This document shows, one piece after another, positions 4,978 through 22,740 of a stretch of 32,000 nucleotides of DNA (positions within the stretch are counted from its first letter, which is position 1; every line of letters begins with the position of its first letter). This DNA comes from Alkalilimnicola ehrlichii MLHE-1. Its GTDB lineage: Bacteria; Pseudomonadota; Gammaproteobacteria; Nitrococcales; Halorhodospiraceae. The notes beneath the pieces were generated by a model that was given only the letters and a program-made list of their open reading frames with translations, had not been told where the DNA came from and did not search any database. The stretch covers positions 2,700,001 to 2,732,000 of the forward strand of contig NC_008340.1 of NCBI RefSeq assembly GCF_000014785.1. The letters are read 5' to 3'. A program made the position numbers and the translations under genes.

Positions 4978-5841
4978 TTACGGCCGGTCGCGCTCGCCTT
5001 CATCCGGGCCTACCACCCGCACCGGGAAGGGATCGGTGACACTGCCGGCGTACAGGGTGCGGTGGGGGAAGGGGATCTCGATGCCCTCGCGGTCGAAGGC
5101 CTCCTTGATCTCGATCTGGAGGCTGTTGCGCATCTCCAGGAAGTTCTCGCGTTGGGCCCATACGTTGTATTGCAGGTTCAGCGCCGAGTCGCCGAAGCCC
5201 AGGAACAGGAACTGCGGCTTGGGCTCTTCCAGGCAGAGCGGATTGGCGCTGGCCACCTCCTCCAGTACCCGGCGCACGCGCTTGATGTCCTCCTTGTAGG
5301 CGACGCCGATCTGCAGATCGAGCCGGCGGATGGGGAAGCGCGACAGGTTCGTCATCTCGGTCTTGATCAGGGTCTCGTTGGGCAGGCGCACGAACAGGTT
5401 GTCGAAGGTGCGCAGTTTGACCGAGAGCAGGTCGATGGAGATAACCTCGCCAATGGTGGTGCCCACGCGGATGGTGTCGCCCACCGAGAAGGGACGTTCC
5501 CAGACCAGGAACAGGCCGCTGATGAGGTTGGAGGCGGAGGTCTGGGAGGCGAAGCCGATGGCCACCGAGATGATGCCGGCGGCGCCGAGCAGGACGCCCA
5601 GCTTGAAGCCCATCTGGTGCAAGGCGGAGGTGAAGGCGAGCACCAGGATGCCGTAGAAGATCACCCGGCGCAGGATGAGCCCCAGGTGGCGGTCCAGGTG
5701 GGTGGTGGGGATGCGCCCCACCAGGCCGGCGAGCACCCGCCCGAGCAGGAAACCGCCGACGAGGATGAGCGCCGCGCGCACCATGGCGCCACCGAGCCCG
5801 GCGGTGAAGAACTGGACGATGGCGTTAAACCAGGCTTCCAT
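4978..5841 (-). CDS. mechanosensitive ion channel, MscS family
   Basis: 287 aa. Three N-terminal TM helices are followed by the MscS beta-domain signature (FSVGDTIRVGTTIGEVISIDLLSVKLRTFDNLFVRLPNETL). Confidence 0.85.
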   Translation of the reverse strand: MEAWFNAIVQFFTAGLGGAMVRAALILVGGFLLGRVLAGLVGRIPTTHLDRHLGLILRRVIFYGILVLAFTSALHQMGFKLGVLLGAAGIISVAIGFASQTSASNLISGLFLVWERPFSVGDTIRVGTTIGEVISIDLLSVKLRTFDNLFVRLPNETLIKTEMTNLSRFPIRRLDLQIGVAYKEDIKRVRRVLEEVASANPLCLEEPKPQFLFLGFGDSALNLQYNVWAQRENFLEMRNSLQIEIKEAFDREGIEIPFPHRTLYAGSVTDPFPVRVVGPDEGERDRP

Positions 5842-5894
5842 GGTGCCCCCTCACGGAAAGACTGCAAAGAACGTTATTGTGCGGCTGAATGGGC

Positions 5895-6510
5895 CATCAT
5901 TGCGAGGTTCCACACACCGGCGCTGTGAAGTGGCACACCGTCACGGCGAACCCCGAAGGGGCGCGGCAGTCCAGGCGGCGGGTGGATCGCCGCGTCGCTG
6001 CGCTCCTCGCGATGACGGGGGGTGGTGGTGCCCCCACCGTCACGGCGAGCCCTGAAGGGGCGTGGCAGTCCAGGCGGCGGGTGGATCGCCGCGTCGCTGC
6101 GCTCCTCGCGATGACGGGGGGTGGTGGTGCCCCCACCGTCACGGCGGGAAGGGCCGCGCCCCCACCGTCACGGCGAGGAGGGCCGCGCCCCCGCCGTCAC
6201 TGCGAGGAGGCGAAGCCGACGTGGCAGTCTACCGCCCTGGATCGCCGCGGGCCTTCGGCCCTCGCGATGACGGGTGGGGCGCCCCCCTCGCGATGACGAC
6301 CGAAAACCCGCAGCCCTCGCCATGGCAGCCCCGCTGTTCTTCCCTGATTCGGGCCCGCGCAGCGGGGCGGGGGGCTCGCGATGACGGGGGAGGGGGTGGT
6401 GGTGGGCACCTCACGATGACGGGGCGTGGGGGCGCCCCCACCGTCACGGCGAGGAGGGCCGCGCCCCCGCCGTCACTGCGAGGAGCGAAGCGACGTGGCA
6501 GTCTCCCGCC
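5895..6510. repeat. Second array of the same REP/MITE-like repeat family, including 2 tandem 99-bp units
   Basis: caccgtcacggcg recurs at 5936, 6035 and 6134 (period 99). Positions 6194-6273 match 317-396 of the first array at 79 of 80 nt. Further copies of gtcactgcgaggagcgaagcgacgtggcagtc and ctcgcgatgacgg follow up to about 6506, 5 nt from the stop of the 6512-7330 gene. Confidence 0.9.
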
Positions 6511-6511
6511 C

Positions 6512-7330
6512 TCAGCCGCGTAGTAATTGGGTGAAGGCGCGGAAGGCGGTGTGTTGGCGGCCGCTTTGGCGGGGGGCGCTGAGTCGGGTGCCGCCGTGGC
6601 ATTCCCGCGGGGGTTGGTCGGTGAAGCGCAGTTCGGCCAGGTCGCCGTCGGCGCGGCGGGTCAGCCCCACCTCCGGCGTCCACAGGTGGTCATCCTGGTC
6701 CGCGTACAGCGGCAGCCAGGGCATGGGCACGTTCAGCCGGTCCAGGGTCAGCGGGTCGGCGGCCTGGTTGCGGATCTGCACCGGGGTGATGACCCGGGCG
6801 GGGGAGCGTGCCTGCTCGGCCAAGGTGAGCCGGAAGCGGCTGCGGGTGGCGTAGCAGATCTCCCCCTCCATGTTCGAGGGGCCGAACCAGGTGTCGGAGG
6901 GGCGGTAGCTGGGTTGCTCCAGCATCCGGTGCTGCCTCTCGCCCAGGGTCACCCGCACCCAGACTGGCGTGGAGACGTACACCCGCACCGCCTCGCCACC
7001 GGGCACGGAGACCGGGCTCACCGGCCGCGAGACCACCGCACGGTCGGCGGGGAGCAGCTCCAGGTGGATGCGGGACTCGGGGGTAGCGAGCACCACCCGG
7101 TGCAGTTGTTCGCCCTCCGGGATCAGGGCCGGGTCGTCGCTGTGCACCATTTCGAGGCGGTCGAGCCAGGGGTCCGGGTCCTGCTCGCGCAGCAGCCGCC
7201 ACTCGTTTAGGCCGTGGTGCACGCGCAATCGCATGGGCCCCACCAGCCACTGGCGGGTGAAGCCCTGGGCGATGTTGAAGTCGCCGTACCAGCGGGCAAC
7301 CCGACCGCCCGCCGCCTGACTGCCACTCAT
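6512..7330 (-). CDS. hypothetical cytoplasmic protein, translationally coupled to gspN
   Basis: 272-aa ORF with no signal peptide or TM segment. Its ATG (7328-7330) overlaps the gspN TGA (7327-7329) as ATGA. Codon usage looks like its neighbours. I recognise no domain. Confidence 0.6.
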   Translation of the reverse strand: MSGSQAAGGRVARWYGDFNIAQGFTRQWLVGPMRLRVHHGLNEWRLLREQDPDPWLDRLEMVHSDDPALIPEGEQLHRVVLATPESRIHLELLPADRAVVSRPVSPVSVPGGEAVRVYVSTPVWVRVTLGERQHRMLEQPSYRPSDTWFGPSNMEGEICYATRSRFRLTLAEQARSPARVITPVQIRNQAADPLTLDRLNVPMPWLPLYADQDDHLWTPEVGLTRRADGDLAELRFTDQPPRECHGGTRLSAPRQSGRQHTAFRAFTQLLRG

Positions 7331-8115
7331 GGTGTGAACCTGCCCTCCAGACGGATCGGGTAAAGCCCGTCGCCGTCCGGCCGGCCGAGCATCCCCAGGG
7401 CCTGGCGCAGTTCACCCGGGGCCTGCTCGCTGTGCCCCACCCGACCCTCCAGGCGCCAGCGCAGCGCGGGGTCGACGCTGACCCGGGCGTCCAGGCGCAG
7501 GGGGCCGCCGTGGTCCTGCAGCTGGCCCTCCAGCTGGCCGTCGGCGCCGGTGAAATTGCCGGACAGATCCCCCAGCGGCAGGGCCATGGGCGCCTGCACC
7601 GCCGCTGCGTGCCACAGCAGGCGGCCGTCCAGCGAGGCCACCCGCCCGTCCGGCTCGAGCCGGGCGGCGTCCAGCCGGCCGCGGAAGGTGCCGTCCAGCG
7701 CCACCGGCCCCATGGCCGCATCGCCCACCCAGTGGCGCAGCCGCGCGGCCTCCAGGCGCAGCCTGACGTCGCGCAGCTCGACCCCACCGTCCGGCGCGAC
7801 CAGCGCCCGGCCCTCGATGTCGGCCCCCGCCTCGCGGAGGTGGAAGCGCAGATCGGCCTGCCCGCGCAGCAGACCACCCGGCTGCACGGTCCAGCTCAAC
7901 CGCTGCGCCTCATAGTGTTGCCAGGCGGGTTGTTCCAGGGTGCCGGACCAGACGGAGCCGGACGCCCCCGCCCAGCCGGCCTCGGGGGGCAACCAGCCCT
8001 GGCGCTCACCCAGTGCCAGGGCGGCGCCGGCGGGCCAGTACCCGATCAGGAAGGCGCCCCAGGCGAGCAGCGCCAGCAGGAACCAGCCGGTGTAACCGAG
8101 CAGCCACCGCCTCAT
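7327..8115 (-). CDS. gspN: type II secretion system protein N
   Basis: I chose the internal ATG at 8113-8115 (MRRWLLGYTGWFLLALLAWGAF, single N-terminal TM). It overlaps the gspM stop as ATGA. Size (262 aa) and position after gspM fit GspN. The Arg/Pro-rich extension in the track ORF is rejected. Confidence 0.7.
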   Translation of the reverse strand: MRRWLLGYTGWFLLALLAWGAFLIGYWPAGAALALGERQGWLPPEAGWAGASGSVWSGTLEQPAWQHYEAQRLSWTVQPGGLLRGQADLRFHLREAGADIEGRALVAPDGGVELRDVRLRLEAARLRHWVGDAAMGPVALDGTFRGRLDAARLEPDGRVASLDGRLLWHAAAVQAPMALPLGDLSGNFTGADGQLEGQLQDHGGPLRLDARVSVDPALRWRLEGRVGHSEQAPGELRQALGMLGRPDGDGLYPIRLEGRFTP

Positions 8116-8606
8116 GATTCGGACTCCAGGGTGAGGCGGGCGTTGACCCGGCCGGGGGCGTCCAGCGGCTCCAGGCTGAGGGCGTGGACCCGCACGCCGG
8201 TCTCGGCGAGGGCGTCCAGCCAATAGAGCATCTGATCGAAGTCCGCCCGCTCCAGCCAGACCCGCACCCGCTGGTCACCGTCGGGCTGCAGGCGTTCCAG
8301 CCGCTCACCCAGGCCGTAGTCGCCGGCGCTGCGGTCCACCCGGCCCAGCAGGGAGTCGGCCCGGCCCTCGCCGGGGACGGCGGTGGCCCCGCCGGCCTGG
8401 CGCACCCGCTCGGCGGCGGCGGCCATCCAGGCCTGCTGGGCACGGGCCTCGGCCACCTCGCCACGCAGGGTCTCGGCGCGGTCGGAGAGCGGCAGCCAGA
8501 TGCCGCCCCAGGGCAACAGCACGGCGAGCACCAGGGCCCCGGCCAGCAGGATGCGCCGCTCCCGGGGTTCCAGCCCCTGCCAGTGGGCGAGCAGTCGCTC
8601 CTTCAT
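8112..8606 (-). CDS. gspM: type II secretion system protein M
   Basis: 164 aa. It starts MKERLLAHWQGLEPRERRILLAGALVLAVLL, the typical GspM N-terminus and TM, followed by a periplasmic ferredoxin-like domain. It shows ATGA overlap with gspL. Confidence 0.8.
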   Translation of the reverse strand: MKERLLAHWQGLEPRERRILLAGALVLAVLLPWGGIWLPLSDRAETLRGEVAEARAQQAWMAAAAERVRQAGGATAVPGEGRADSLLGRVDRSAGDYGLGERLERLQPDGDQRVRVWLERADFDQMLYWLDALAETGVRVHALSLEPLDAPGRVNARLTLESES

Positions 8607-9877
8607 GCCTCCTCCCGCTGAATGGTGACCCGGCCGGCGATGCGCTCACCCCGGCTGGCCGCGGAGTGGATCTGCACCTGCCAGTCGCCCCGCGCCTCCA
8701 CCGCCTCGCGCAGCCGCTCCAACGCCTGCACGCTGGCGGCGTCCAGGTCCAGTTCCAGCCGCTGCTGGCGGAAGGCGAGGCTGCGCAGCCGGGGGGCATC
8801 GTCGCCGGTCAGGGCCGGCGCGACCGCATTGAGCACGGCGATGAAGGGGTCGGACCGGCGCTCCGGGCCGCCCTCGCCACCACCGTCCAGTTCGGCCAGT
8901 GCCCGCTCCATCTGCACCCGCGGGTTGACCACCCGGCTGTCGGGGAAGGTGTCGCGGAAGATCTCCACGGTCTCGGCGCGCAGGGCCTGTTCGGTGCGCT
9001 CCAGGTTGCGCACCTCGGCATAGAGCATGACGAATTGCAGGCCCACCCAGGCCAGGGCCAGGGCCGCCACCGCGCGCCAGGGGCGCAGTCGCCGGAGCCA
9101 CTGCTCGCGCCCGCTGAAGGGGCCCTGGAGCAGATTGATCGCCTGGTGCGGATCGAACAGGGGGGCCAGGGCGCGCAGCGGACTGTCGGCCGCCGGCTGC
9201 TCGCTGACGGTGAGGGTGTCGGGCAGGGCCGCGCGCAGGGCCTCGACCTGCCCGGGGGCGGCGCCCGCCGGGTGGAGGGCCAGCCCGGCGGGGGCGCCCT
9301 CATCGCCGGCCTCACCGGCGGCCTGCGCCTGGGCCAGCAGCCGGGGCAGGATCAGCGGCCAGGCGTCGGCCTCCAGGGCCAGTCCGGCGCGCGGCCCGGT
9401 GCTGAGCCAGCCGGCCTGGTCGCCCAGGATCAGGCGCCAGTCGTCGTCCCCGGCACCGATGGCCAGTTCCAGCGGGGTGATCGTATGCAGTTCGAGGCCC
9501 TGCTCGGCGGCCCAGTGCAACCAGGTGGCCATGCGCTCGCGGTCGATGACCGCGGCGCTGTGGCGTCCGTCGGCCTCCGGCCGGCCCAGGGCGAAGTGCA
9601 GCCGGTCGGGATCGGCGGCGAGCTGGTCCTCCAGCGCCCAAGGCAGCGCCTGGCGGGCCCGCTGGCGGTTACGGGTGGGCAGCGTGGCCCGCAGGACGCT
9701 GACCTCGCCGGGTGGCAGCAACAGCCACACCCGGGCGCCCCGGGGCAGCCGGGTGGCGAGGTCGCCGGCCGGGGCCTCGCCGTGGTCGCCCACGCGGCCG
9801 TCGGCGTCCAGCAGGCACCATTCCACCGGGTCGTCCGCGGTGGGTGCGGTGGGTAGCAGCAGGCAGTATTGACTCAT
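8603..9877 (-). CDS. gspL: type II secretion system protein L
   Basis: The internal ATG at 9875-9877 gives 424 aa (MSQYCLLLPTAP...). A cytoplasmic actin-like domain is followed by one TM (WRAVAALALAWVGLQFVMLYA) and a periplasmic domain. It sits between gspK and gspM. Confidence 0.8.
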   Translation of the reverse strand: MSQYCLLLPTAPTADDPVEWCLLDADGRVGDHGEAPAGDLATRLPRGARVWLLLPPGEVSVLRATLPTRNRQRARQALPWALEDQLAADPDRLHFALGRPEADGRHSAAVIDRERMATWLHWAAEQGLELHTITPLELAIGAGDDDWRLILGDQAGWLSTGPRAGLALEADAWPLILPRLLAQAQAAGEAGDEGAPAGLALHPAGAAPGQVEALRAALPDTLTVSEQPAADSPLRALAPLFDPHQAINLLQGPFSGREQWLRRLRPWRAVAALALAWVGLQFVMLYAEVRNLERTEQALRAETVEIFRDTFPDSRVVNPRVQMERALAELDGGGEGGPERRSDPFIAVLNAVAPALTGDDAPRLRSLAFRQQRLELDLDAASVQALERLREAVEARGDWQVQIHSAASRGERIAGRVTIQREEA

Positions 9878-9902
9878 GGCCCCATCATACCCCCTGCCCC
9901 GG

Positions 9903-10721
9903 TCAACAGGCACGCAGCCGGCGCAGCACCACCTCGCCGGTGACGGCGTTGACGATGCTGCACTGGCGGTAACGCCGGTCGGCGCTGTCGACGACGATGT
10001 GCAGGCGCACCCAGTCCGGGCTGTCCTGGCCCTCGGTGTCCGGCGGCTGGTCCGGGTCCGCCTCGGTGGCGGCCAGGAGCCGGTCGGGGGCCCGGCGGGG
10101 GTTGATGGCGACACCCTGCGCCGGCACCGCGGTGACGTAGGGGCGCAGGGCCTGGAACAGCTCGGGCGTCACCCCGCGGACCAGGGCCAGCTCGCTGGCG
10201 GTGGCCAGGCGGGTCCCCGGGTTGCTGTAGGGGGGCTGCTGGCCGGCGTACCAGGGGTCGTGCACCTCCGGGTCCATCCAGTCGCGCAGGGCGGCCAGCA
10301 CACCGTCCGGGTCCACCGCACCGAGTCCGTGGTCGGCGGCCACGTCCTCCAACAGCCGGAGGAAGGTCTCGGCGCTCGCCTCGTCCTCGGGGTCGGCGAG
10401 GTTGTTGAGGTTGAACCGGCAGTGCAGGTCCTCGGCCACCACCTGCACCGCCTGACCGTCCAGGGGCACGACCACGGGCGGCGTGCGGCAGTCCTCCCAG
10501 GGCACCGCGTCCGGGTTATCGGCCAGCAGGCGCAGGGCCTGGGCCGCCAGGGCCTCGCCGCTGGCGGCGTGCCAATAGGCCTGGTCGTGTTCCAGCAGGT
10601 TGCCGGTGCGGCGGATGTCCAGGTGCTGGCGGGTGGTCATGGCGACGGTGGCGATGGTGGCCAGCGCCACCACCAGCAGGGCGGTGATCAGGGCCACCCC
10701 CCGTTGCCGCCGCCGCGCCAT
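9903..10721 (-). CDS. gspK: type II secretion system minor pseudopilin K
   Basis: The internal ATG at 10719-10721 gives MARRRQRGVALITALLVVALATIATVAM, a GspK-type prepilin-like N-terminus lacking Glu5. Conserved GspK blocks are present (RFNLNNL, ATASELALVRGVTPELFQALRPYVTA). Confidence 0.8.
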   Translation of the reverse strand: MARRRQRGVALITALLVVALATIATVAMTTRQHLDIRRTGNLLEHDQAYWHAASGEALAAQALRLLADNPDAVPWEDCRTPPVVVPLDGQAVQVVAEDLHCRFNLNNLADPEDEASAETFLRLLEDVAADHGLGAVDPDGVLAALRDWMDPEVHDPWYAGQQPPYSNPGTRLATASELALVRGVTPELFQALRPYVTAVPAQGVAINPRRAPDRLLAATEADPDQPPDTEGQDSPDWVRLHIVVDSADRRYRQCSIVNAVTGEVVLRRLRAC

Positions 10722-10723
10722 GG

Positions 10724-12766
10724 CTACTCCGCCTCCACCGCCTGCTCGGCGACGGCGGCGAAGGGCGCCAGCCATTGCCGCACCCGCGCGCGGAGCTCCT
10801 CGTCCTCGGCGATCCGATCGGCGATGGCCGGGCTGAAGTGGTAATAGAGGCTGACCAGCTCCTGCCCGGCACGGCTGGTCAGCAGGGCCTCGTCGCGGAA
10901 CTGGCGCAGGGTGGCCACGGGCGCATCCCATTCACTGCCCCAGGCGGCGGTGGCAATGAAGCAGCCGCCACCTCCGCCACCACCCCCAGTGCCGTTGTCT
11001 CCGTCCGGGGCGCCGTTGTCGCCATTGCCGTTATCGTCGTTGCCGTTGCCGTTGTCGTCGTTGCCGTTGCCGTTGTCGTCGTTGCCATTGTCGCCATTGT
11101 CGTCGCTGGTCGCCACGTAGCTCGCCGAACCCGAGCAGGCGCGCACACTGGCCCGCTCGGCGCAGACCCGGTAGGTGATGGTCTCGCCCTCGTCCAGTGC
11201 CGGGGAGACGACGGCCTCCTGGTCCCCGCTCTCCAGGGTGACCCCGCCGGTGGCCTGGAAGTCGGCGTCCGCATCGTCGCAGCCGTCGCCCTCGCAGTGC
11301 TCCAGCGCCAGCGCATCGAGCTGATAGCTGTTGTTCAGCCAGGTCAATTCCAGCTCCGAGGTATCGGGCAGCGGGTTGATCCGCAGCCGGCTCGGGGCGA
11401 AGGGCGGCAGACCGGCCAGGTCGACGGTGAGGGCGTCGTAGGCGTTCACGATGCCGCCGGTGGCGGTCAGCCCCTCCCAGTCCGGGCTGGCATTCAGCCG
11501 GGCGGACATCAGGAGGCGCTCCCGCACCGCCTGGTAAGGGGTATCGACGCCGTGCTGGGCCAGCACCAGGCCGGCGATGCCGACCACGTGGGGTACAGCC
11601 ATAGAGGTGCCCGAACGGAATTCGTAGGGGTCTGGCCGGTCCGGCCGGTCCACCACGGCACTCAGGATATCAACGCCGGGCGCGGCCAGGTGGACGTCGG
11701 TCTCCCCAAAATTGGAGAAACTCGCGCGCTCGTCGTCCTCGTCTGAGGCCGCGACCGAGATGATGTTGTCCAGCCGGTAACTGGCCGGCCAGAAGCCCGT
11801 CGGCTCGTCCGATTCCGTGTCATTCTCCTCACCCGCGTTCCCCGCCGCGGCCACCACCAGGACCCCCTGCTCACCGGCTGCCCGCAGGGCCGCCTTGAGG
11901 GTGTCGTCCTCGCCGTCATCCCGGAGCGGACTTTCATCGGTGCCGAAACTGGCGTTGATGACCCTCACCCCTTCATCGACCAACGCCTCCACGGCCGCAA
12001 TCACGTCGGCAAAGGACCCTTCGACCCGGTTCGGGCCAGCGACCTCCAGCGCGGCGTGGCTGTACAGCGAGACCTGGAGATTCACGCCGGCCACCCCCTC
12101 CCCCTCAGCCGCGATCACGCCGGCGACATGGGTGCCATGATCCTCCGGCTGAGAATCGTCGAACTGGGAACCGGTCCCCGCCACGTTCTGCTGCAGATCG
12201 GGATGGGCCGTATCGATCTCGGTGTCCACCTGGCCCAGTCGCACCGCCGGGTCACCGGTGGTCAGGTCCCAGGCCTGCGGCACATCGATGGCCGGCAGGT
12301 TCCATTGCTGGTCATAGAACTCGGGCTCCGGGTCGAGCTGGGCGGCGTAGACCCGGTAGTTGGGCTCGACATAGGCCACCGCCGGGTCCTCGGCGTAGGC
12401 GGCGATGGCCTCCTCCAGGCTCATCCAGGACGGCAGCCGAACATGCTCCGCGTTACCGGTGCGAAAGCGCCGGACCACATTGGCGCCCACCAGGGCATGA
12501 GCCGCCCGCATACGCGGCTCGGTCTCCGCCGCGTCCCCGGCCGGCCGGATCAGCAACTCCCCCGGCACACAGCAGTCCGGGTTGTCCCGGACCGTCTCGA
12601 TCAGGGTGCGGGCCGAAGCCGGCAGGGCCGCCAACCGCTCCGCTGAGAGCGCGGCCACCCGCCGGTCGTCCTCCGGCGGTTCCAGGCCTCCGCTCAGCAG
12701 CGGGGGCAGCAACAGTGCCGCGACCAGCGCGGCGGCCATCCATGCAGTGAAGAGGCGCATCTTCAT
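10724..12766 (-). CDS. secreted subtilisin-family (S8) serine protease with I9-like propeptide, Asp/Asn/Gly repeat linker and CFIATAAWG C-terminal module
   Basis: 680 aa with a signal peptide (MKMRLFTAWMAAALVAALLLPPLL). Catalytic motifs are VDTEIDTAHPDL (Asp), HGTHVAGVIAA (His), AAAGNAG (oxyanion Asn) and SGTSMAVPHVVG (Ser). The tail reads G8-CFIATAAWGSEWDAPVATLRQFRDEALL...YYHFSPAIA. Confidence 0.9.
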   Translation of the reverse strand: MKMRLFTAWMAAALVAALLLPPLLSGGLEPPEDDRRVAALSAERLAALPASARTLIETVRDNPDCCVPGELLIRPAGDAAETEPRMRAAHALVGANVVRRFRTGNAEHVRLPSWMSLEEAIAAYAEDPAVAYVEPNYRVYAAQLDPEPEFYDQQWNLPAIDVPQAWDLTTGDPAVRLGQVDTEIDTAHPDLQQNVAGTGSQFDDSQPEDHGTHVAGVIAAEGEGVAGVNLQVSLYSHAALEVAGPNRVEGSFADVIAAVEALVDEGVRVINASFGTDESPLRDDGEDDTLKAALRAAGEQGVLVVAAAGNAGEENDTESDEPTGFWPASYRLDNIISVAASDEDDERASFSNFGETDVHLAAPGVDILSAVVDRPDRPDPYEFRSGTSMAVPHVVGIAGLVLAQHGVDTPYQAVRERLLMSARLNASPDWEGLTATGGIVNAYDALTVDLAGLPPFAPSRLRINPLPDTSELELTWLNNSYQLDALALEHCEGDGCDDADADFQATGGVTLESGDQEAVVSPALDEGETITYRVCAERASVRACSGSASYVATSDDNGDNGNDDNGNGNDDNGNGNDDNGNGDNGAPDGDNGTGGGGGGGGCFIATAAWGSEWDAPVATLRQFRDEALLTSRAGQELVSLYYHFSPAIADRIAEDEELRARVRQWLAPFAAVAEQAVEAE
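11018..11104. repeat. In-frame 21-bp tandem repeat (about 4 copies) inside the S8 protease gene
   Basis: gttgccgttgccgttgtcgtc occurs at 11039-11059 and 11060-11080, with degenerate copies on either side. It encodes the DDNGNGN repeats of the linker. Confidence 0.9.
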
Positions 12767-13401
12767 CGGTCGTTCTCCTTGCGCGGGAGGGCGAAAAGCC
12801 GGGTCACCGCCCCGGTGTGCTCCGCTTCCAGTTCAATCTCGACGGCGAGGGGCAGGTCCGCATTGGGCTGCTCCGGTGGGGGCCAGGCCCGGCTGGTGGT
12901 CCGCTCCCCGTCCAGGCCATGGTAGTGGAAGACGAAGGCGAGTACCTCCACGGTGTTGCCGGCCACCTCCCCCAGCATGGGCACCCGGCTTTGCGGCTCA
13001 TCCATGCCGCCGTCCACGGTGGGCCAGAGCAGCCGGTAGAGCACGCCGTCCTCCAGCTCCCAACCCACCCGTCGCAGCTCCGAGCGCACGCCGCGACTGC
13101 GCGCGCCAGCGCTCACCAGTTCCAGCCGCGGGGGCAGGCGCAGGTCGTCGAGCATCAGCCCGGGGCGGCGGTCGCCGTAGGCATCGCGCCGGGGCCGGTC
13201 CACCACCTGGTGCAGATCCCGCTGCAGCATGGCGAAGGCCAACTGCATCTCATCCAGTCGCTCCGCGGCCCGGTCGGTGTGCGCCCGGGCGTCCAGCACC
13301 GAGGTGAGGCCGCCGTAGGCCATGGCGGCCAGCAGGGAGAAGACCGCCATGGCCACCAGCAGCTCCAGGAGGGTGAAACCGCGCGACCGGTCAGAGGCCA
13401 T
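12763..13401 (-). CDS. gspJ: type II secretion system minor pseudopilin J
   Basis: The internal ATG at 13399-13401 gives MASDRSRGFTLLELLVAMAVFSLLAAMAYGG, a prepilin cleavage/methylation motif G-FTLLE. It is 212 aa and lies between gspI and the protease gene. Confidence 0.85.
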   Translation of the reverse strand: MASDRSRGFTLLELLVAMAVFSLLAAMAYGGLTSVLDARAHTDRAAERLDEMQLAFAMLQRDLHQVVDRPRRDAYGDRRPGLMLDDLRLPPRLELVSAGARSRGVRSELRRVGWELEDGVLYRLLWPTVDGGMDEPQSRVPMLGEVAGNTVEVLAFVFHYHGLDGERTTSRAWPPPEQPNADLPLAVEIELEAEHTGAVTRLFALPRKENDR

Positions 13402-13840
13402 CGAAGCCCCCCTCCTCCAGGTCATCGATCGTCCCCAGGCGGCCCCCCTCCGGGACCAGCACCACGCGGGCGGTGGCCAGGGGCTGTTGCTCGCGCGCCT
13501 GGTCGCGGTGGACCGCCACCTCCAGCCGGCGCAGCCCCGGGATGCCCGGCAGGCCCTCCAGCTCCGGCGCCCAGGGCGCCATCGTCGCCCGCCAATGCCA
13601 GTCGCGCCCGCCGAGACGCTCGACGCCTTCGGCGGGGCCGGACTCGGGCAGTGCCTCCAGCCGCGCCTGGAAGCGGTTGAGCTGATTGGCAGCCACCCAG
13701 TGGGCATGGGTCCGGTCGCGCAGATAGGCGGCGTTGGCGGCGTTCTCGCTGGCCACCTTGACGGCCGCGCCCAGGGCGGTGGCCAGGATGGCCAGCGCCA
13801 CCAGCACCTCCAGCAGGGTAAAGCCCCGTTGCCTAGCCAT
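13391..13840 (-). CDS. gspI: type II secretion system minor pseudopilin I
   Basis: The internal ATG at 13838-13840 gives MARQRGFTLLEVLVALAILATALGAA and the GspI-like block AYLRDRTHAHWVAANQL. It is 149 aa. Confidence 0.85.
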   Translation of the reverse strand: MARQRGFTLLEVLVALAILATALGAAVKVASENAANAAYLRDRTHAHWVAANQLNRFQARLEALPESGPAEGVERLGGRDWHWRATMAPWAPELEGLPGIPGLRRLEVAVHRDQAREQQPLATARVVLVPEGGRLGTIDDLEEGGFDGL

Positions 13841-14375
13841 CGGGCGCCTCCGTGTGCAGGCGCAGGCGCCCGGCCATGTCACCGGTGACGACCCGGATCC
13901 GGTCCGGGTCGCGCTGATCGCGCAGCGTGAGCTGGAACTCCGTCACCTCGCCGGTCCCATAGAGGTAGAGGTGGGGGTCGGGCTGTTCGGGCCGGTAGTC
14001 CAGGCGGACGTCCACGCCCTCCAGGCGCAACGCCAGTTCCATGTCCTCCGGCTCCAGGTCGCGGGGCCGGAGCTGGCGGTCGCGGTCCACCGGCAGCCAG
14101 GTGGTGAGGCCGTCCTCCACCTCCACCTCGTGCAGGAAGTGGTAGCCGTGCCGGGTCACCCCCACGGCCAACTCCGGGCCGCCGAGCATGACCTCCTGGC
14201 GGGCGAGGTCCACCAGGCTGATGAAGCGCCGGGCCTGCTCCTCCAACTGGCGGTCGCGGCCGCCATCGCCCACGGAGAGCACGGCGAGGCCGGTGAGCAA
14301 CCCCAGGATGATGATGACCGCCAGCAGCTCGAACAGGGTGAAGCCGGCGCTGGCCTTGGCGGGGCGGGGCATCAT
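13833..14375 (-). CDS. gspH: type II secretion system minor pseudopilin H
   Basis: 180 aa. The N-terminus AGFTLFELLAVIIILGLLTGLAV is a prepilin motif. It lies between gspG and gspI. Confidence 0.8.
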   Translation of the reverse strand: MMPRPAKASAGFTLFELLAVIIILGLLTGLAVLSVGDGGRDRQLEEQARRFISLVDLARQEVMLGGPELAVGVTRHGYHFLHEVEVEDGLTTWLPVDRDRQLRPRDLEPEDMELALRLEGVDVRLDYRPEQPDPHLYLYGTGEVTEFQLTLRDQRDPDRIRVVTGDMAGRLRLHTEAPDG

Positions 14376-14381
14376 CCGGCG

Positions 14382-14816
14382 TCAGTCCAGCGCCCAGTTG
14401 CCGATCTCCGCGTTGACGCCGGAGCCCCCCGGCTGACCGTCGGCACCGTAGCTGAAGATGTCGATGTCGCTGTGCTCGCCCGGGTTGAGGTATTGGTAGT
14501 CGTTGCCCCAGGGGTCCTTGGGCAGCCGGTCCAGGTAGCCGCCCTCGCGCCAGTTGCGCGGCTCGGGATTGCCGGTGGGCCGCTCCACCAGCGCCTCCAG
14601 GCCCTGGTCGGTGCTGGGATAGACGTTGTTGTCCAGGCGGTAGAGGTTGAGCGCGGACTCGATGGCGCGGATATCGGAGCGCGCCTTGCTGATCCGGGCG
14701 TCGTCGGGACGGTCCATGATCCGCGGCACCACGATACCGGCGAGGATGCCGAGGATGACCACCACCACCATGATCTCGATGAGGGTGAAGCCGCTTTGCC
14801 GTTGTCTAGCCATCAT
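14382..14816 (-). CDS. gspG: type II secretion system major pseudopilin G
   Basis: 144 aa. [34 protein letters not shown] plus the conserved blocks [33 protein letters not shown] and [16 protein letters not shown] lies upstream. Confidence 0.95.
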
Positions 14817-14845
14817 GCACTGGGACTCCTCAAGGGGTTACGGGC

Positions 14846-14899
14846 GCCACTATTGCGCCAACTGCCACTATTGCGCCAACTGCCACTATTGCACCAACT
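14846..14899. repeat. 18-bp tandem repeat x3 spanning the gspF stop codon and the gspF-gspG spacer
   Basis: gccactattgcgccaact occurs at 14846-14863 and 14864-14881, and gccactattgcaccaact at 14882-14899. On the coding strand each copy carries an in-frame TAG. Confidence 0.9.
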
Positions 14900-16100
14900 G
14901 ATTGAGTTCGAAGACCGGCAACAGGATGGCAAGCACGATCACCATGACCACGCCGCCCATGAGCAGGATCAGCAGCGGCTCGAACAGCCCCAGGAACATG
15001 CCGGTGAGGCTCTCCAGCTCCCGCTCCTGGTTCTCCGCCGCCCGGTCCAGCATCTGCTCCAGCTTGCCACCGGCCTCGCCGCTGGCGATCAGGTGCACGG
15101 TGATGGGCGGGAAGTAGCCGGTCCGTTCCAGGGCGTGGGCCAGACCGCTGCCCTCGCGCACGCGCCGGGCGGCCTCCTCCACCCCGCGCCGCATGGGGTC
15201 GTTGTTGACCACCGCGCCGGCCACCCGCAGCGCCTCCAGCACCGGCACGCTGCTGGCGGTGAGGATGCTCAGGGTGCGGGCAAAGCGGGCGGCGTTCACC
15301 CCCCGGGTCAGGCGCCCGATCAGGGGCAGTCGCAGCAGCAGGCTGTGCAGGGCGTAACGGGGCCCGGGCCGGCGCAGGATCCGGGCCAGCACCAGCAGCC
15401 CCACGATACCGCCGATCAGGCCGTAGAGGGCATAGTCGCGCATGAAGTCGCTGGTGACGATCAGCGACTGGGTGAGCAGCGGCAGATCCTGACCGATGTG
15501 GTCGAACACCCCCACCACCTCCGGCACCACGTAGGTGAGCAGGGTGAGGGTGACGCCGATGGCCATGACCGTGAGGATGATCGGGTAGAACAGCGCCATC
15601 TGCACCTTCTGGCGCATCTGCTGGCGGCCCTCGGTGTATTCCGCCAGCCGCTCCAGCACGATGTCCAGGTGGCCGGACTTCTCGCCGGCGGCTACCGTGG
15701 TGCGGTAGATATCGGGGAAGACGTGGGGGAAATCGCCCAACCCCTGGGCCAGGGTGTGACCCTCCAGCACGCGGTTGCGCACCGCCAGCATCAGGCTCTT
15801 GAGGCGGGGCTTGTCGGTCTGCCGGGAGACGGTGCGCAGGACGTCCTCCAGCGGCAGGCCGGAGCGCACCAGGGTGGCCATCTGGCGGGTGATCAGGGCC
15901 AGATCGGTGGCGCTGACCCCGCGGGTGAACAGCGGCCGGCGCACCGCACGCGCCTCCCGCTCCACCACGGCCTGCACGGCCAGGGGCGTAAGCCCGCGGT
16001 CGCGCAGTTGGGCGCGGACGTGACGCGGGGTGTCCCCCTCGAGCACACCCTTGCGCTGGCGGCCGCCCGGATCCAGTGCCTGATACTCGTAGGCGCCCAT
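14886..16100 (-). CDS. gspF: type II secretion system inner-membrane platform protein F
   Basis: 404 aa. MGAYEYQALDPGGRQRKGVLEGDTPRHVRAQLRDRGLTPL is the typical GspF N-terminus. Two repeated T2SSF domains and three TM segments are present. Confidence 0.95.
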   Translation of the reverse strand: MGAYEYQALDPGGRQRKGVLEGDTPRHVRAQLRDRGLTPLAVQAVVEREARAVRRPLFTRGVSATDLALITRQMATLVRSGLPLEDVLRTVSRQTDKPRLKSLMLAVRNRVLEGHTLAQGLGDFPHVFPDIYRTTVAAGEKSGHLDIVLERLAEYTEGRQQMRQKVQMALFYPIILTVMAIGVTLTLLTYVVPEVVGVFDHIGQDLPLLTQSLIVTSDFMRDYALYGLIGGIVGLLVLARILRRPGPRYALHSLLLRLPLIGRLTRGVNAARFARTLSILTASSVPVLEALRVAGAVVNNDPMRRGVEEAARRVREGSGLAHALERTGYFPPITVHLIASGEAGGKLEQMLDRAAENQERELESLTGMFLGLFEPLLILLMGGVVMVIVLAILLPVFELNQLVQ

Positions 16101-16258
16101 GCCCTATGCCTCGCCGGCCTCCCTGGCCCGTGGTGGTTCGCTGTGTGTGCTCATTCAGCGCAGGATACCCCACCCTGCGGCGGACCGTGAAGCGGCCTGA
16201 CGGCCCTGCCGCGGTGGCCAGCCACGGCCTTGGGATATGATGGCAGGGGAACGGACGC

Positions 16259-16738
16259 ATGCCGGTGGCGATAGGGGGCGATGGCTTGCAGGCGAACCCG
16301 CTGTACCCATTCAAGGATTGGTTGTTTCTGGCCGCACTGGCCGCCGGGCCGGCCGGGGCGCTGGCCTGGGTGATATTGACCGGGGAGCGGGCCGGCGACG
16401 GCAACCTGCTGACGCCCTGGCCCCTATTGATGCTGGTGGTGGTCTACCCGGTGCTCGAGGAGCTGGCCTTCCGCGGGTTGATTCAGGGGCTGCTGCTGCG
16501 TCCGCACTGGGGCCGTTACCGGGCGGGCCCGGTGAGCCTGGCCAATGCCCTGACCACCCTGGCCTTCGCCCTCAGCCACTGGCCCCGCGGCGGGGCGCTG
16601 CTGGCGCTGGGGGTGATCCCACCGGGGCTGATCTTCGGGTACTTCCGGGAGCGGCACGACGGGCTCTGGAGCCCGATCCTGCTCCACGGCTGGTATAACC
16701 TCTGCGTGATCACGGTGACGGCGACCTGGCCCGCCTGA
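16259..16738 (+). CDS. CPBP-family (CAAX protease / Abi) glutamic-type intramembrane protease, minimal 159-aa form
   Basis: Polytopic membrane protein with all three CPBP motifs: EELAFR (E67,E68,R72; gag gag at 16457-16462), FALSH (F103,H107) and HGWYN (H143,N147). It is divergent from gspF and convergent with the tagged CLCA-like gene. Confidence 0.85.
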   Translation: MPVAIGGDGLQANPLYPFKDWLFLAALAAGPAGALAWVILTGERAGDGNLLTPWPLLMLVVVYPVLEELAFRGLIQGLLLRPHWGRYRAGPVSLANALTTLAFALSHWPRGGALLALGVIPPGLIFGYFRERHDGLWSPILLHGWYNLCVITVTATWPA

Positions 16739-16763
16739 GCGGGCGCCGCGGGAAGAAACAAGC

Positions 16764-16787
16764 GGCCGGCGGGGGATCCCGCCGGCC
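16764..16787. terminator. Perfect 10-bp GC hairpin between convergent genes (possible bidirectional terminator)
   Basis: ggccggcggg (16764-16773), loop ggat, cccgccggcc (16778-16787). On the minus strand it is followed by the T-rich cttgtttcttcc. No clear T-tract follows on the plus strand. Confidence 0.45.
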
Positions 16788-16822
16788 GGTGGGTGGGTTA
16801 AGGGGGCCGGGGCCCCGCGCGC

Positions 16823-16951
16823 TCAGGCGCGGTGGCGACGACGGCCCAGGATGACGCCGAGCAGGGCCAGGATGGCCAGCAGCGGCAGGGTCGGGTCGGC
16901 GGGGCCACCGGCACTGTTGCCCGCCACGCTGCAGGCGGAACCCCGGCGGGT
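16823..16951 (-). other. C-terminal sorting tag copy 1 (TRRGSACSVAGNSAGGPADPTLPLLAILALLGVILGRRRHRA)
   Basis: Tripartite tail preceded by an acidic run (DEDEEEFEM): Cys-containing motif, hydrophobic helix, Arg cluster at the extreme C-terminus. It matches the tail at 20826-20954 at 31 of 42 residues. Confidence 0.8.
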
Positions 16952-19741
16952 CATCTCGAACTCCTCCTCATCCTCGTCCGTGATCCGGTCCGGTTCCGCG
17001 GGCTGGTCCGAGCTGATCACCGAGCCGGCGCTGACCTTGTAGGTGCCCTCGTCGGCGGTCTCATCCTCATGCTCGACCGTGACCACCAGGTCCTGCAGCT
17101 CCGCACCGCCAACCATACCTTCGTCATTGGCGGTCTCCAGCCAGTCCCGATCCAGGACGGTGTAGAGGTAGCCGTTGCGGGCGACGAAGTCCTCATCGTC
17201 CAGGCTGAAGGTCAGCAGCACCTCGCTGCCATCGCCGGTGTAGATCGTCACGATGGGCTGCATGCCCAGGCCAAAGGATGCCACCCGCAGAGAGACATCG
17301 CCCTCGTCCGGGACGCTGGTACCGACCAGGCGGAAGCAATCCCTATCGCTGGCGGCATCGATCCGCCCCGGGATAGTCGTGTTATCGGCCTCGAGCGGCG
17401 TGCAGGCGCCCGGCAGGGCGGGATCATCCGCGTGATCGTCGTCCTGAAAACCATCCACGGTGAACTGCGTGGTCGCCACGCGCTGGAAGTTCTCCGGGAT
17501 CGGCTCCGGATCCGGGGCCTGCACCTCCATGCCATTGATGTCCGGCGCCGGGGCCACACCCCCGTACACGAACTGGCCGGTCCCGGCCTGGTTGTCCACC
17601 CGGACGCGCAGCTCGTGGGTACCACCCTGCCGGTAGTTCACCACGGCCGAGTAGATGCCATCACCGGCCTCCGCGTCACCGTTCTGGCCCTCGTCGTTGA
17701 GCGGCACGGTGGTGACGTTCCCGTCGGGATCGGTCAGCTCGGCGACCACATTGACCCCCGAGACCATCCGCCCGGCGGAGATCGCGGCCGAGATCAGCGC
17801 GGGTGACGGGTATTCCACCGTGCTGCCACCCAGGGTACTGACCCGCACGTCAAAGGTCCGACCGTCCGCCGGGTTGGCCACCACATTCAGGAGCACCTCC
17901 ACTTCACCGCCGGAGGTATTCTCCCCGGTGTCGACGGTCCAGTCGCCGACGCCACCCGCCGATACCGCGTCGCGGTCCACGGTGGCGAGGCAGGAGACCT
18001 CATCGGCTGACTCGTCGCAGCTGAACGGGATTCCGGTGTCGTTGCCGTCACTGTCCAACAGCGTGGGGGACAACTGGTCGGCACTGCCGGTGAAGTTAAG
18101 GAGCACGGTCATCGAGCCCAGGGTGGGGTCCACGGTGAAGGTGAGCCGCTCGTTGGCGCCCGCAGCGACCGGCTGCGACTCCTGACTCAGGTTGACCGCA
18201 TCGGACACGGCGGCGTTGGCCGCCAGGAAGGCCTCCTGGATCTCGGCCAGGGTCGTGGGTGAGGCGAAGAACTCACCGCCGGTGTTATCGGCGAGCCGCC
18301 GCAACACCCCGGTGGGTGCGAAGCTGCCATAGCCGAAGGCGATGATGGGGACGTTGGCATCCTGGTAGGCCTGGACGGTCTGCGGCTCTGTCGCAGCGGA
18401 GCTGTTGTCGCCACCATCGGAGAGCAGGAAGGCCACCTGCCCGGCATCGGTATCGTTGGCGGCGCTGTAATCCTGCAGTTCGTCCAAGCCCAGTATCAGG
18501 CCATCGAACATGGCGGTCAGCCCGGAGGCCGGGAGGCTGTCGATGGCGTCCTTGAGCTGGTCCTTTTCCGCCGTACCCGGGTCCGGGATGGCGATCATGG
18601 GGTGGACCACCGAGGCACTCGCCGAGAAGCGCACGACGCCCATGGCGGTACGGCCAGGCTCGACCACATCCACCAGGGTCCGACCGGCTGTGCGGGCGTT
18701 GATGATGGGAGCGCCGCTCATGCTCCCGGAGGTGTCGACAATGAGCGAGATCTCCAGGTCATCGTCCATCCAGACGATCTCCAGCTCATCGCGGCAACCG
18801 TGATCCATCTGATCGAGCTGGGTGACCACCCAGTTATCCGCCGCCGTCGGCGCCACGGCCTCCAGGGCCGTATACCGGGTCCGGTCAGGCTGAACGGTCT
18901 CGTTACCCTCCTGTGGATCGTCGGTGGTGGGTTGGACCAACACCTCCCAGCCGCTCTTGCCGTAGACCCGGCCCTGGGCGGTATCCTCCGGATCGCCGAT
19001 GTTGTCACTGGTGGAGTGGTTCAACCACTCGTAGTTACCGCCGCGGGCCTGCCACTGGCTGTTCATGATGGCCGGGCTGGTGGGCACATCGCCAACCTGC
19101 GGGAAGGTATCGCGATTCTCCGCCGGGTCGCGCCCCTCGTACTCATCATACAGGGCAAGCACGTAGTGGCCCCACTCGTGCCCCAGGGTGTAGCCGGCGC
19201 CCTCGGCATCGGCCAGCATGTCGTAGTCGCAGCCATTACCGCAGCCGTCGGGGAAGATATCCCCCATCCAGATGTGCCGCCCGGCACTGCCGAACCCCGC
19301 GATACTGGCCCGCGGCCACTCCTCCTCGTTCCAGATAATGTCGGCCCGGGAGCCGTGGCCGCCGTTGGTGAAGACCCGCACGGTACCGAGCTGGCTGGCC
19401 CCGTTGCTCTGCTCGCAGACCGAGTCGGCGAAGTGTTCGATCACGGCCTCGTAGGGATCCCGCTCGTTTTCGGTCTCCGGGTTGTTGTGCAGGGAAATGG
19501 TGATATCGAAGACGGTCGTGCCGGCGTCCGTGGAGGCCCCCACCACCCGGTCGCTGCCCGCGGCGGTGAGGCCCTGGGCGCTCGCCGGGGCCGTATCGGC
19601 ACCGATCCGCGCCTTGGAGAACCAGGAATCCCCGGCGGAGAGCGGTGCGCTGATCATGGCGGCGCTGAGGCCGGCGCAGAACAGCCCGGTGTACCAGGAC
19701 CGCCGTTTCTCGACATGGCGGTCGACGTGTCTGATGTTCAT
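16823..19741 (-). CDS. secreted CLCA-like zinc metalloprotease - VWA domain - PPC domain protein with C-terminal Cys/TM/Arg sorting tag
   Basis: I chose the ATG at 19739-19741 (AGGAAGAGGAG upstream; MNIRHVDRHVEKRRSWYTGLFCAGLSAAMISAPLSAG signal peptide), giving 972 aa. HEWGHYVLALYDEY (HEWGH encoded at 19166-19180) matches the CLCA-type HExxH...DEY metallohydrolase motif. VWA MIDAS residues are present (DTSGSMSG, GLTAM, LSDGGDN). A pre-peptidase C-terminal-like domain follows (GRIDAASDRDCFRL). For the tail, see the tag feature. Confidence 0.85.
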   Translation of the reverse strand: MNIRHVDRHVEKRRSWYTGLFCAGLSAAMISAPLSAGDSWFSKARIGADTAPASAQGLTAAGSDRVVGASTDAGTTVFDITISLHNNPETENERDPYEAVIEHFADSVCEQSNGASQLGTVRVFTNGGHGSRADIIWNEEEWPRASIAGFGSAGRHIWMGDIFPDGCGNGCDYDMLADAEGAGYTLGHEWGHYVLALYDEYEGRDPAENRDTFPQVGDVPTSPAIMNSQWQARGGNYEWLNHSTSDNIGDPEDTAQGRVYGKSGWEVLVQPTTDDPQEGNETVQPDRTRYTALEAVAPTAADNWVVTQLDQMDHGCRDELEIVWMDDDLEISLIVDTSGSMSGAPIINARTAGRTLVDVVEPGRTAMGVVRFSASASVVHPMIAIPDPGTAEKDQLKDAIDSLPASGLTAMFDGLILGLDELQDYSAANDTDAGQVAFLLSDGGDNSSAATEPQTVQAYQDANVPIIAFGYGSFAPTGVLRRLADNTGGEFFASPTTLAEIQEAFLAANAAVSDAVNLSQESQPVAAGANERLTFTVDPTLGSMTVLLNFTGSADQLSPTLLDSDGNDTGIPFSCDESADEVSCLATVDRDAVSAGGVGDWTVDTGENTSGGEVEVLLNVVANPADGRTFDVRVSTLGGSTVEYPSPALISAAISAGRMVSGVNVVAELTDPDGNVTTVPLNDEGQNGDAEAGDGIYSAVVNYRQGGTHELRVRVDNQAGTGQFVYGGVAPAPDINGMEVQAPDPEPIPENFQRVATTQFTVDGFQDDDHADDPALPGACTPLEADNTTIPGRIDAASDRDCFRLVGTSVPDEGDVSLRVASFGLGMQPIVTIYTGDGSEVLLTFSLDDEDFVARNGYLYTVLDRDWLETANDEGMVGGAELQDLVVTVEHEDETADEGTYKVSAGSVISSDQPAEPDRITDEDEEEFEMTRRGSACSVAGNSAGGPADPTLPLLAILALLGVILGRRRHRA

Positions 19742-19823
19742 TGCGTTCTCCTCTTCCTTCTTTCGCCTTTGCTCAACAGAATCTGCTCCCTGCTTGTTGG
19801 CTACGTCCTGTTCGATCAGTCGG

Positions 19824-20627: not shown

Positions 20628-20825
20628 TGGCCTCTCCGTTCCGCAATCTGCAGGCACGCAAAGCGCATCACCACACTCTGCGAGCCGCAGCTGGGCATCC
20701 CTGCAGCCAGCCCCACAATCCAGCGGAGGGCGGGGTGCGCCAAACGAGGTCTACGCACCGACCGCCTCATCCCTAAGGTGGTCGGCGCGCAGCCCGGGAA
20801 CCTCCTTCAAGTCGTCAGCGTGACT

Positions 20826-22676: not shown

Positions 22677-22740
22677 TTCCATCCTCCTCAGCAAACCGGT
22701 GGAGCGGCCCCGTTCAGGGCCCCGCCCCGCCCCAAGTTAG

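Follow-up and report, generated by a model that had tools for sequence, protein, structure and literature searches.

Why should a protease gene lie among the minor-pseudopilin genes of a type II secretion system (T2SS)? The question is raised by a 32,000-nt stretch of DNA from Alkalilimnicola ehrlichii MLHE-1 (contig NC_008340.1, positions 2,700,001 to 2,732,000; hereafter the window, whose numbering we use throughout). In this window, a minus-strand gene for a 680-amino-acid (aa) subtilase of peptidase family S8 (10724–12766) sits codon-tight between gspJ and gspK. We propose that a Sec-exported pro-subtilase was captured into the gspF-to-DUF432 operon, is co-expressed with the T2SS and is exported by it, a reading that we consider probable though some way from secure.

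A subtilase gene in the minor-pseudopilin block

Read directly on the minus strand, the gspJ stop codon TGA (12765–12763) overlaps the S8 start codon ATG (12766–12764) by 4 nt (...AAGGAGAACGACCG-ATGA-AGATG). Upstream of this ATG lies an AAGGAG Shine–Dalgarno element (Table 1), which is also present in two of the related loci described below (L002 and L024). At the other end, the S8 stop codon TAG (10726–10724) is followed by 2 nt (CC) and then by the gspK start codon ATG (10721–10719), with GGAGG/GGAG motifs within the last S8 codons, just upstream of that ATG. The gene identities and junction geometry given by an earlier, sequence-only reading of this DNA were thus borne out by the minus-strand reading and by Pfam and NCBIfam family scores, and its coordinates were exact. 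Tight junctions are the rule throughout the operon, with all spacings from gspG to DUF432 falling between –11 and +25 nt. The S8 gene is therefore distinguished by its position, not by its spacing. Its G+C content at third codon positions (0.86) is only slightly lower than that of the gsp neighbors (0.89–0.96), and base composition gave no clear signal of recent transfer. An exact protein look-up returned no record identical to the S8 product.

The sequence-only reading held that the gene must be co-transcribed, and is probably translationally coupled, with the pseudopilin genes. No terminator-like site was found between gspF and DUF432, and the overlap and 2-nt junctions are conserved in three lineages (see below), so co-transcription with the T2SS genes and translational coupling are both likely. 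"Must" is too strong, as promoters can be intragenic and may occur within coding sequence. A strong terminator-like hairpin of 11 G–C pairs plus a T-run follows the VWA gene, upstream of gspF (Table 1). Together with the lack of such a site inside gspF–DUF432, this fits a transcription unit starting in the 158-nt spacer that gspF shares with mrtJ. A scan of positions 6000–17000 for sigma-70 promoters gave 0 sites versus 0.2 expected, which is uninformative at 70% G+C, and an Rfam scan of the window gave no matches.

The arrangement is restricted to a small clade

Five of the compared loci have the order gspJ–S8–gspK, and these represent three lineages: A. ehrlichii (the window and L002, whose S8 protein is 99% identical to that of the window), a metagenomic relative (L024 and L025; 78% identity), and Alkalispirillum mobile with a near-identical metagenome-assembled genome (MAG) (L001 and L003; 49% identity over the protease region). 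Both S8 junctions are tight in all three. The S8/gspK junction reads TAA, 2 nt, ATG in L024 and is a GTGA overlap in A. mobile. At the gspJ/S8 junction the exact letters ATGA vary: L002 has TTG as the overlapped codon, whereas in L024 the junction again reads ATGA, with no second ATG nearby, and in A. mobile ATGATG overlaps TGA. Because it is retained as an overlap in L002, L024 and A. mobile, the overlapped codon is probably the S8 start codon in all lineages. Gene order from gspF to DUF432 is identical in L001, L002 and L024.

For comparison, we used as an outgroup 13 loci that contain both gspJ and gspK, drawn from Ectothiorhodospira genomes, a Chromatiales MAG and seven soda-lake metagenome contigs. 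Comparing gspJ–gspK junctions, which the sequence-only reading had suggested as a check, finds the S8 gene in the three lineages and in none of these 13 Ectothiorhodospiraceae/Chromatiales loci. The arrangement is confined to a few closely related haloalkaliphilic Ectothiorhodospiraceae. The orthologue in L024 was omitted by our S8 homology search, and absence from that search's list is no evidence of gene absence.

The outgroup also bears on the claim that gspG-H-I-J-K normally form an uninterrupted block. In 12 of the 13 loci gspJ and gspK are directly adjacent, in line with the claim. The exception is E. shaposhnikovii DSM 243, where a GNAT acetyltransferase gene lies between them (L007, 5487–5972). 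In E. mobilis DSM 4180, genes for an Xre antitoxin and a putative RES-type toxin separate gspI from gspJ (L011, 4254–5310), and an Rpn-family nuclease/transposase-like gene separates gspK from gspL (L011, 6903–7892). The pseudopilin block is normally uninterrupted, yet it is insertion-tolerant in Ectothiorhodospiraceae.

The gene encodes an intact pro-subtilase

The S8 protein comprises, in order, a signal peptide, a pro-domain, a catalytic domain, a beta-sandwich, a disordered linker, a poly-Gly-Cys stretch and a CFI-box-CTERM domain (Table 1). Its N-terminus has a basic n-region, a hydrophobic core and no lipobox Cys, as read from the translation without a predictor. The subtilase family match (PF00082) scores 133.7 bits against a gathering score of 21.8 and covers aa 177–423. 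The Asp-His-Ser triad (D181/H210/S388) and the oxyanion residue N310 are intact and in S8 order; the usual DTG motif reads DTE in the window protein, DTD in L024 and DTK in A. mobile.

An AlphaFold model of the whole protein (mean pLDDT, the predicted local distance difference test, 79.4) contains a signal-peptide helix, a low-confidence junction after the pro-domain (aa 145–151) and a helical C-terminal domain (aa 604–679). Foldseek matched the model best to pro-subtilisin E and unprocessed pro-subtilisins (E = 3e-27; TM(target) 0.84 to 3WHI), with further matches to Tk-subtilisin, fervidolysin (1R6V) and deseasin. The predicted fold is that of a pro-subtilisin, with the pro-domain packed on the alpha/beta catalytic domain. 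The linker is encoded by a 21-bp tandem repeat (11014–11090, 3.7 copies by TRF), and L002 has one repeat unit, or 7 aa, fewer. A. mobile has instead a Ser-rich linker and a second FN3-like domain.

Ratios of nonsynonymous to synonymous substitution rates (dN/dS; Nei–Gojobori estimates) between the window and L024 were 0.24 for the whole S8 gene, 0.18 for the catalytic domain, 0.51 for the beta-sandwich (the fastest-evolving folded part) and 0.14 for the CFI-box, compared to 0.05–0.35 for neighboring gsp genes. Between the window and A. mobile, the CFI-box value was 0.085. These estimates, with the intact active site, point to a gene under purifying selection whose product is predicted to be catalytically competent.

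The protease carries a C-terminal CFI-box

What the sequence-only reading overlooked is that the S8 protease is itself tagged, ending in poly-Gly-Cys plus the CFI-box-CTERM domain. The match to NF041770 (83.7 bits; cut-off 40) spans aa 602–669 of 680, at the extreme C-terminus. The family motifs C-F-I-A-T-A-A-x-G, LRxFRD and YYxxSP are present as GGGGGGGG-CFIATAAWGS...LRQFRD...YYHFSP. Between A. ehrlichii and A. mobile the CFI-box is 79% identical, versus 49% for the protease region; it is the most conserved part of the protein. Modeled alone, it forms a four-helix unit (pLDDT 90), and a Foldseek search of this isolated model against the PDB gave no match at E ≤ 10.

The domain is common. A profile search of 1.84 billion representative proteins found 30,326 CFI-box proteins at E ≤ 0.001, with the domain at the C-terminus of proteins 89 to 2655 aa long; a word-indexed homology search with the CFI-box alone returned just 7 short fragments. 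Passenger domains in 54 CFI-box proteins were FN3, PKD, Ig-like, beta-propellers and similar surface-type modules. In the family alignment the Cys and the preceding Gly run (three Gly) are invariant. A core of ∼60 aa is followed by a hydrophobic helix and a basic tail in 138 of the 147 top representatives, a sample biased by a query profile that included helix and tail columns. This helix and basic cluster are typical of the family and lie outside the 69-position profile hidden Markov model. The window protein has neither, ending 78 aa after the Cys in ...AEQAVEAE, and the same is true of the CFI-box S8 proteins of A. mobile, L024 and a distant relative, P0009. Literature searches found no paper on the domain.

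The closest S8 relatives outside the clade are ∼35% identical, and the named ones belong to Nitrospirota, Thermodesulfovibrionales, Syntrophobacterales and Desulfuromonas. Among the best 120 S8 matches, 68 end in GGGG-C-FIATAA, the CFI-box, and at least 36 instead have, at the equivalent position, GGGG-C-SIGARQN...AD followed by a hydrophobic helix and RRRR. The latter endings are tripartite tags of the myxosortase type, comparable to MYXO-CTERM and JDVT-CTERM (bioRxiv 10.1101/2023.06.07.544157; PMC11980579). As the two endings are interchangeable at the same position, the CFI-box behaves like a second kind of C-terminal module for sorting or anchoring, starting with the same Gly run and Cys. 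The S8 tail resembles the tags of the MYXO-CTERM/myxosortase and JDVT-CTERM/MrtJ systems in its Gly-rich run followed by an invariant Cys. It differs from them in having no match to NF033191 or TIGR03901, no transmembrane helix and no Arg cluster; two other proteins encoded in the window, an NHL-repeat protein and a VWA protein, do match one or the other of these families.

Might the tail then anchor the protease to the cell surface? On this account Cys602 would be modified (for example, lipidated) and the CFI-box cleaved off, with the T2SS placing the protease on the surface. The swapping of CFI-box and Cys-tag endings among relatives is in its favor, as are the invariance of the Cys and its preceding glycines, the presence of mrtJ in the same MLHE-1 locus, and the finding that MYXO-CTERM sorting requires the T2SS (PMC11980579). 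Yet the S8 protein has neither the transmembrane helix nor the basic tail that an intramembrane protease needs and that most top family members have, the A. mobile locus has no mrtJ, and the literature searches yielded no CFI-box publication to build on. We know of no sorting enzyme for the CFI-box, and we regard surface anchoring as highly improbable.

A related speculation, which we rate as quite unlikely to hold, is that the T2SS, or a partner encoded with it, could read the CFI-box as a module for recognition or sorting. The helical domain could dock on the pseudopilus tip, GspC or GspN, with Cys602 as a processing or attachment site and the S8 protease as a single client wired into the operon.

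Captured cargo, hitchhiker or machinery protease?

We infer that the S8 protease is best read as a dedicated T2SS substrate, a possibility that the sequence-only reading had also raised. In this account, the gene would have been captured in the common ancestor of A. ehrlichii and A. mobile and would now be transcribed as the sixth gene of the gspF-to-DUF432 operon. Its translation would be coupled to that of gspJ through the stop/start overlap and the AAGGAG 8 nt upstream, and its own 3′ end would supply the ribosome-binding site for gspK. The protein would cross the inner membrane via its signal peptide and fold with the aid of its pro-domain. Having no membrane helix, it would not be tethered to the inner membrane; it would be free in the periplasm, accessible to the T2SS, and the folded protein would pass the outer membrane through the co-expressed system. 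The conserved helical CFI-box would probably serve in recognition, retention or later removal rather than in membrane anchoring; such strong conservation argues for a role that continues to depend on a partner.

In Gammaproteobacteria, hydrolases that are exported by Sec and then fold normally leave the cell through the T2SS, and the S8 protein has the corresponding features, namely a signal-peptide-like N-terminus in its sequence and folded domains in its model. Published work offers parallels. The T2SS exports tagged surface proteases and adhesins, such as VesB with GlyGly-CTERM (PMC6219818) and MYXO-CTERM proteins (PMC11980579); TraA without its MYXO-CTERM tag is released by the T2SS (PMC11980579); and lipoproteins are handled via GspN (PMC12802150). 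An independent case also hints at an affinity between tagged subtilases and the pseudopilin block. In a Chromatiales MAG (L008, JAQVJI010000095.1), a different S8 gene (5098–7848; ∼30% identity) directly follows gspK and is itself followed by priA; gspL, gspM and gspN are not downstream in the contig. The tail of this second protein is Gly-rich, hydrophobic and basic, and resembles the GlyGly-CTERM end of SVAGG-family proteins (E = 8e-5).

Several points weigh on the other side. To our knowledge, T2SS substrates lack a sequence signature, so sequence analysis can at most predict export of the S8 protein by this route. A gene expressed from within the minor-pseudopilin block should yield little protein, which would be unusual for an exoprotease that serves bulk nutrition. 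The unrelated inserts tolerated in Ectothiorhodospira operons, including the GNAT gene at the same J–K junction, mean that position alone is no proof of a functional link. And four distant CFI-box S8 genes on long contigs (P0009, P0005, P0035 and P0055) have no T2SS neighbors, nor any neighbor in common, which argues that the T2SS link is specific to the clade and not a property of the family. On the same grounds we rejected a general linkage of CFI-box and T2SS genes.

The last two observations would also be expected if the S8 gene were a functionally unlinked hitchhiker: a useful protease at an insertion-tolerant junction, with export and function not specific to the T2SS, retained since cutting it out would have a polar or lethal effect on the gsp genes downstream. 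What speaks against this is the history of the locus. The insert has been kept through a divergence of dS ∼1.5 under purifying selection, with re-optimized coupling signals at both junctions in three lineages. The same locus keeps gaining other proteins with signal peptides or sorting tags, and in another lineage the second, unrelated S8 gene of L008 adjoins gspK. We consider the hitchhiker account unlikely, if worth keeping in view.

Alternatively, the protease might act on the secretion machinery or on its cargo, in the periplasm or at the secretin exit, in a mycosin-like role with the CFI-box as a docking domain. Its place in the minor-pseudopilin block, coupled to both gspJ and gspK, would suit such a role. 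So would a C-terminal domain far more conserved than the catalytic part, as expected of a part that contacts a binding partner. The best NCBIfam match by E-value is indeed the type VII secretion mycosin (TIGR03921). We rejected that assignment, since the score of 133.9 bits is well below the cut-off of 278.75 and the protein has no C-terminal membrane anchor. Moreover, the S8 protease is missing from all other relatives sampled, which operate the same T2SS, and the pro-domain, FN3 and linker architecture is typical of extracellular subtilases. The cargo version, in which the sequence-only reading had the protease maturing the tagged proteins of the locus, is poorly supported: the NHL and VWA proteins have a protease of their own in MrtJ (NF033192, 101 bits), and in A. 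mobile the S8 gene persists although the locus there has no JDVT cassette. A machinery- or cargo-directed protease thus seems very unlikely, and a captured T2SS substrate remains the reading that we prefer.

Comparison with known systems

Substrate genes are known beside T2SS operons: pulA next to pulC-O in Klebsiella, sslE/yghJ upstream of gspC in E. coli and lapA with hxc in Pseudomonas. Effector genes often adjoin such operons, as do the predicted effector genes near the T2SS operon of Citrobacter rodentium (PMC10841016). These cases resemble the present one, as read here, in that the gene for a Sec-exported hydrolase lies with the genes of the T2SS that exports it and presumably shares their regulation. 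They differ in that the S8 gene lies inside the minor-pseudopilin block, with overlapping codons, and not at a cluster edge. Our literature searches found no earlier report of an S8 gene between gspJ and gspK, and nothing relevant on type II secretion in Alkalilimnicola.

The VesB/GlyGly-CTERM/rhombosortase system of Vibrio cholerae (PMC6219818, PMC13393428) likewise pairs a serine protease with a C-terminal sorting module, and VesB needs the T2SS to arrive at the cell surface or in the medium. VesB, however, is trypsin-like and is encoded away from the eps operon, and its tag, which rhombosortase cleaves, combines a short Gly-Gly motif with a transmembrane helix and basic tail. The S8 protein is a subtilase with a ∼79-aa helical CFI-box and no transmembrane helix.

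Extracellular multi-domain subtilases whose C-terminal extensions can be removed, such as fervidolysin (1R6V), Tk-subtilisin and deseasin MCP-01 (3VV3), share the order of pro-domain, S8 domain and beta-sandwich fold. The C-terminal domain sets the window protein apart, its model having no PDB match. Aqualysin-type subtilases have removable C-terminal pro-sequences. Mycosin (MycP) of type VII secretion is also a subtilase encoded inside a secretion-system locus; the S8 protein differs from it in its low family score, its lack of a membrane anchor and the secretion system concerned.

The surrounding locus grew stepwise

The T2SS locus in the window is complete (Table 1). Families GspF, G, H, I, J, K, L, M and N are encoded in canonical order on one strand, and gspC, gspD and gspE lie further upstream. 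Exact protein identities were found for GspE (ABI57739), GspF (ABI57732), the DUF432 protein (ABI57722) and PhaC (ABI57720). In A. mobile, gspC through gspN are contiguous apart from the S8 gene, and gspE and gspF abut. MLHE-1 has further insertions. One is a 631-aa open reading frame (ORF) between gspD and gspE, absent from A. mobile, where these genes are spaced by 13 nt. Another, between gspE and gspF, encodes in order a small secreted protein, a TolB/PD40-like protein, the NHL protein, a 277-aa ORF, the VWA protein and MrtJ. The distribution is nested: the S8 gene occurs in all three lineages, NHL and MrtJ genes occur in A. ehrlichii and L024, and the VWA gene occurs only in MLHE-1. The S8 gene is thus the earliest of the insertions by which genes for exported proteins were added to the T2SS locus step by step.

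The gspE–gspF insert contains a complete JDVT-CTERM sorting system, MrtJ plus two clients (16259–22694). Published descriptions of this system typically have one client per genome, adjoining MrtJ. In L024 and L002 the NHL gene adjoins mrtJ and there is no VWA gene. The tag-coding ends of the two MLHE-1 clients (16823–16952 and 20826–20958) are near-identical direct repeats. In L002 (960–1170), the NHL gene has an NHL-type tag start fused to a VWA-type tag end and its downstream sequence; recombination between these repeats therefore either added or removed the VWA gene.

At the other end of the operon, the DUF432 gene is 78–85% conserved across the three S8-bearing lineages, and tblastn found no match to it in the sampled Ectothiorhodospira or soda-lake loci. 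Its product has no visible signal peptide or membrane segment. There are ∼109 homologues, mostly gammaproteobacterial or metagenomic, including P0289 at 44% identity; current Pfam gives no match, and precomputed tables give PF04254. The 670-nt spacer between DUF432 and mscS (5842–6511) holds a 99-bp tandem repeat (5936–6146; 2.1 copies, 97% identical) and related 29-bp repeats. As DUF432 and mscS abut in A. mobile and L024, these repeats are a strain- or species-specific insertion.

Table 1. Coordinates of the S8 gene, its encoded domains and the surrounding T2SS locus in the window
Feature	Position	Strand	Basis or remark
S8 subtilase gene, 680 aa	10724–12766	–	PF00082, 133.7 bits; PF22148 pro-domain
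AAGGAG Shine–Dalgarno of S8 gene	12775–12780	–	sequence; inside gspJ 3′ end, 8 nt upstream of ATG
Sec-type signal peptide, ∼aa 1–26, MKMRLFTAWMAAALVAALLLPPLLSGG	12689–12766	–	read by eye from translation
Fervidolysin-like N-terminal pro-domain, aa 42–141	12344–12643	–	PF22148, E = 1.4e-9; folded in model
Catalytic domain, aa 152–447	11426–12313	–	PF00082; alignment
Asp181	12224–12226	–	invariant column, 50-sequence alignment
His210	12137–12139	–	invariant column, 50-sequence alignment
Asn310	11837–11839	–	invariant column, 50-sequence alignment
Ser388	11603–11605	–	invariant column, 50-sequence alignment
FN3-like beta-sandwich, aa 459–551	11114–11392	–	strands in model; aligns with FN3 domains of relatives
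Disordered Asp/Asn/Gly linker ending in Gly8	10964–11101	–	pLDDT <50 for aa 556–601
CFI-box-CTERM domain, aa 602–680, variant without transmembrane helix and basic tail	10727–10963	–	NF041770; starts at invariant Cys602
Inferred operon gspF-G-H-I-J-S8-K-L-M-N-DUF432	6512–16100	–	gaps –11 to +69 nt
gspC	30272–31264	–	family match
gspD	28254–30275	–	family match
631-aa ORF between gspD and gspE	26255–28150	+	lipoprotein-type signal LALAGC; no Pfam/NCBIfam match
gspE	24552–26099	–	family match
Small secreted ORF starting MKRLMTWLSAGALVLPG	∼23806–24300	–	between gspE and PD40 gene; signal-peptide-like N-terminus; no family match
NHL-repeat protein with JDVT-CTERM tag	20826–22694	–	family matches
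277-aa ORF between NHL and VWA	19824–20657	–	signal-peptide-like N-terminus; third-position G+C 0.76; no family match
VWA protein, choice-of-anchor X, JDVT-CTERM tag	16823–19744	–	family matches
Terminator-like hairpin	16763–16788	–	after VWA gene, upstream of gspF operon
mrtJ, JDVT-system intramembrane protease	16259–16738	+	NF033192, 101 bits (cut-off 75)
gspF	14886–16100	–	family match
gspG	14382–14816	–	family match
gspH	13833–14375	–	family match
gspI	13391–13840	–	family match
gspJ, minor pseudopilin	12763–13401	–	TIGR01711, 98.6 bits (cut-off 64.85); PF11612
gspK, minor pseudopilin	9903–10721	–	NF037980, 165.2 bits (cut-off 130); PF21687
gspL	8603–9877	–	family match
gspM	8112–8606	–	family match
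gspN	7327–8118	–	family match
DUF432 gene	6512–7330	–	overlaps gspN stop by 4 nt

Implications

Cargo genes associated with T2SS clusters are a known theme; what is new here is the placement within the pseudopilin block. If the hitchhiker account were true, the finding would be an annotation curiosity only. Substrate recognition by the T2SS is a standing problem, and the S8 protease offers a cargo candidate whose gene is fixed within the pseudopilin operon of a bacterium that can be cultured. Since its C-terminal domain is strongly conserved and can be separated from the rest at a disordered linker, the protein lends itself to clean tests. More modestly, the nested insertions record how a T2SS locus took up cargo genes one step at a time. 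The S8 gene would also give a first functional context for CFI-box-CTERM, a domain very common on surface-type proteins of environmental bacteria. Should the CFI-box turn out to be read by the T2SS or a partner, the MLHE-1 locus would provide the first genetic access both to what the CFI-box does and to a T2SS cargo signal. The arrangement is chiefly of value because it opens CFI-box-CTERM and T2SS cargo recognition to experiment.

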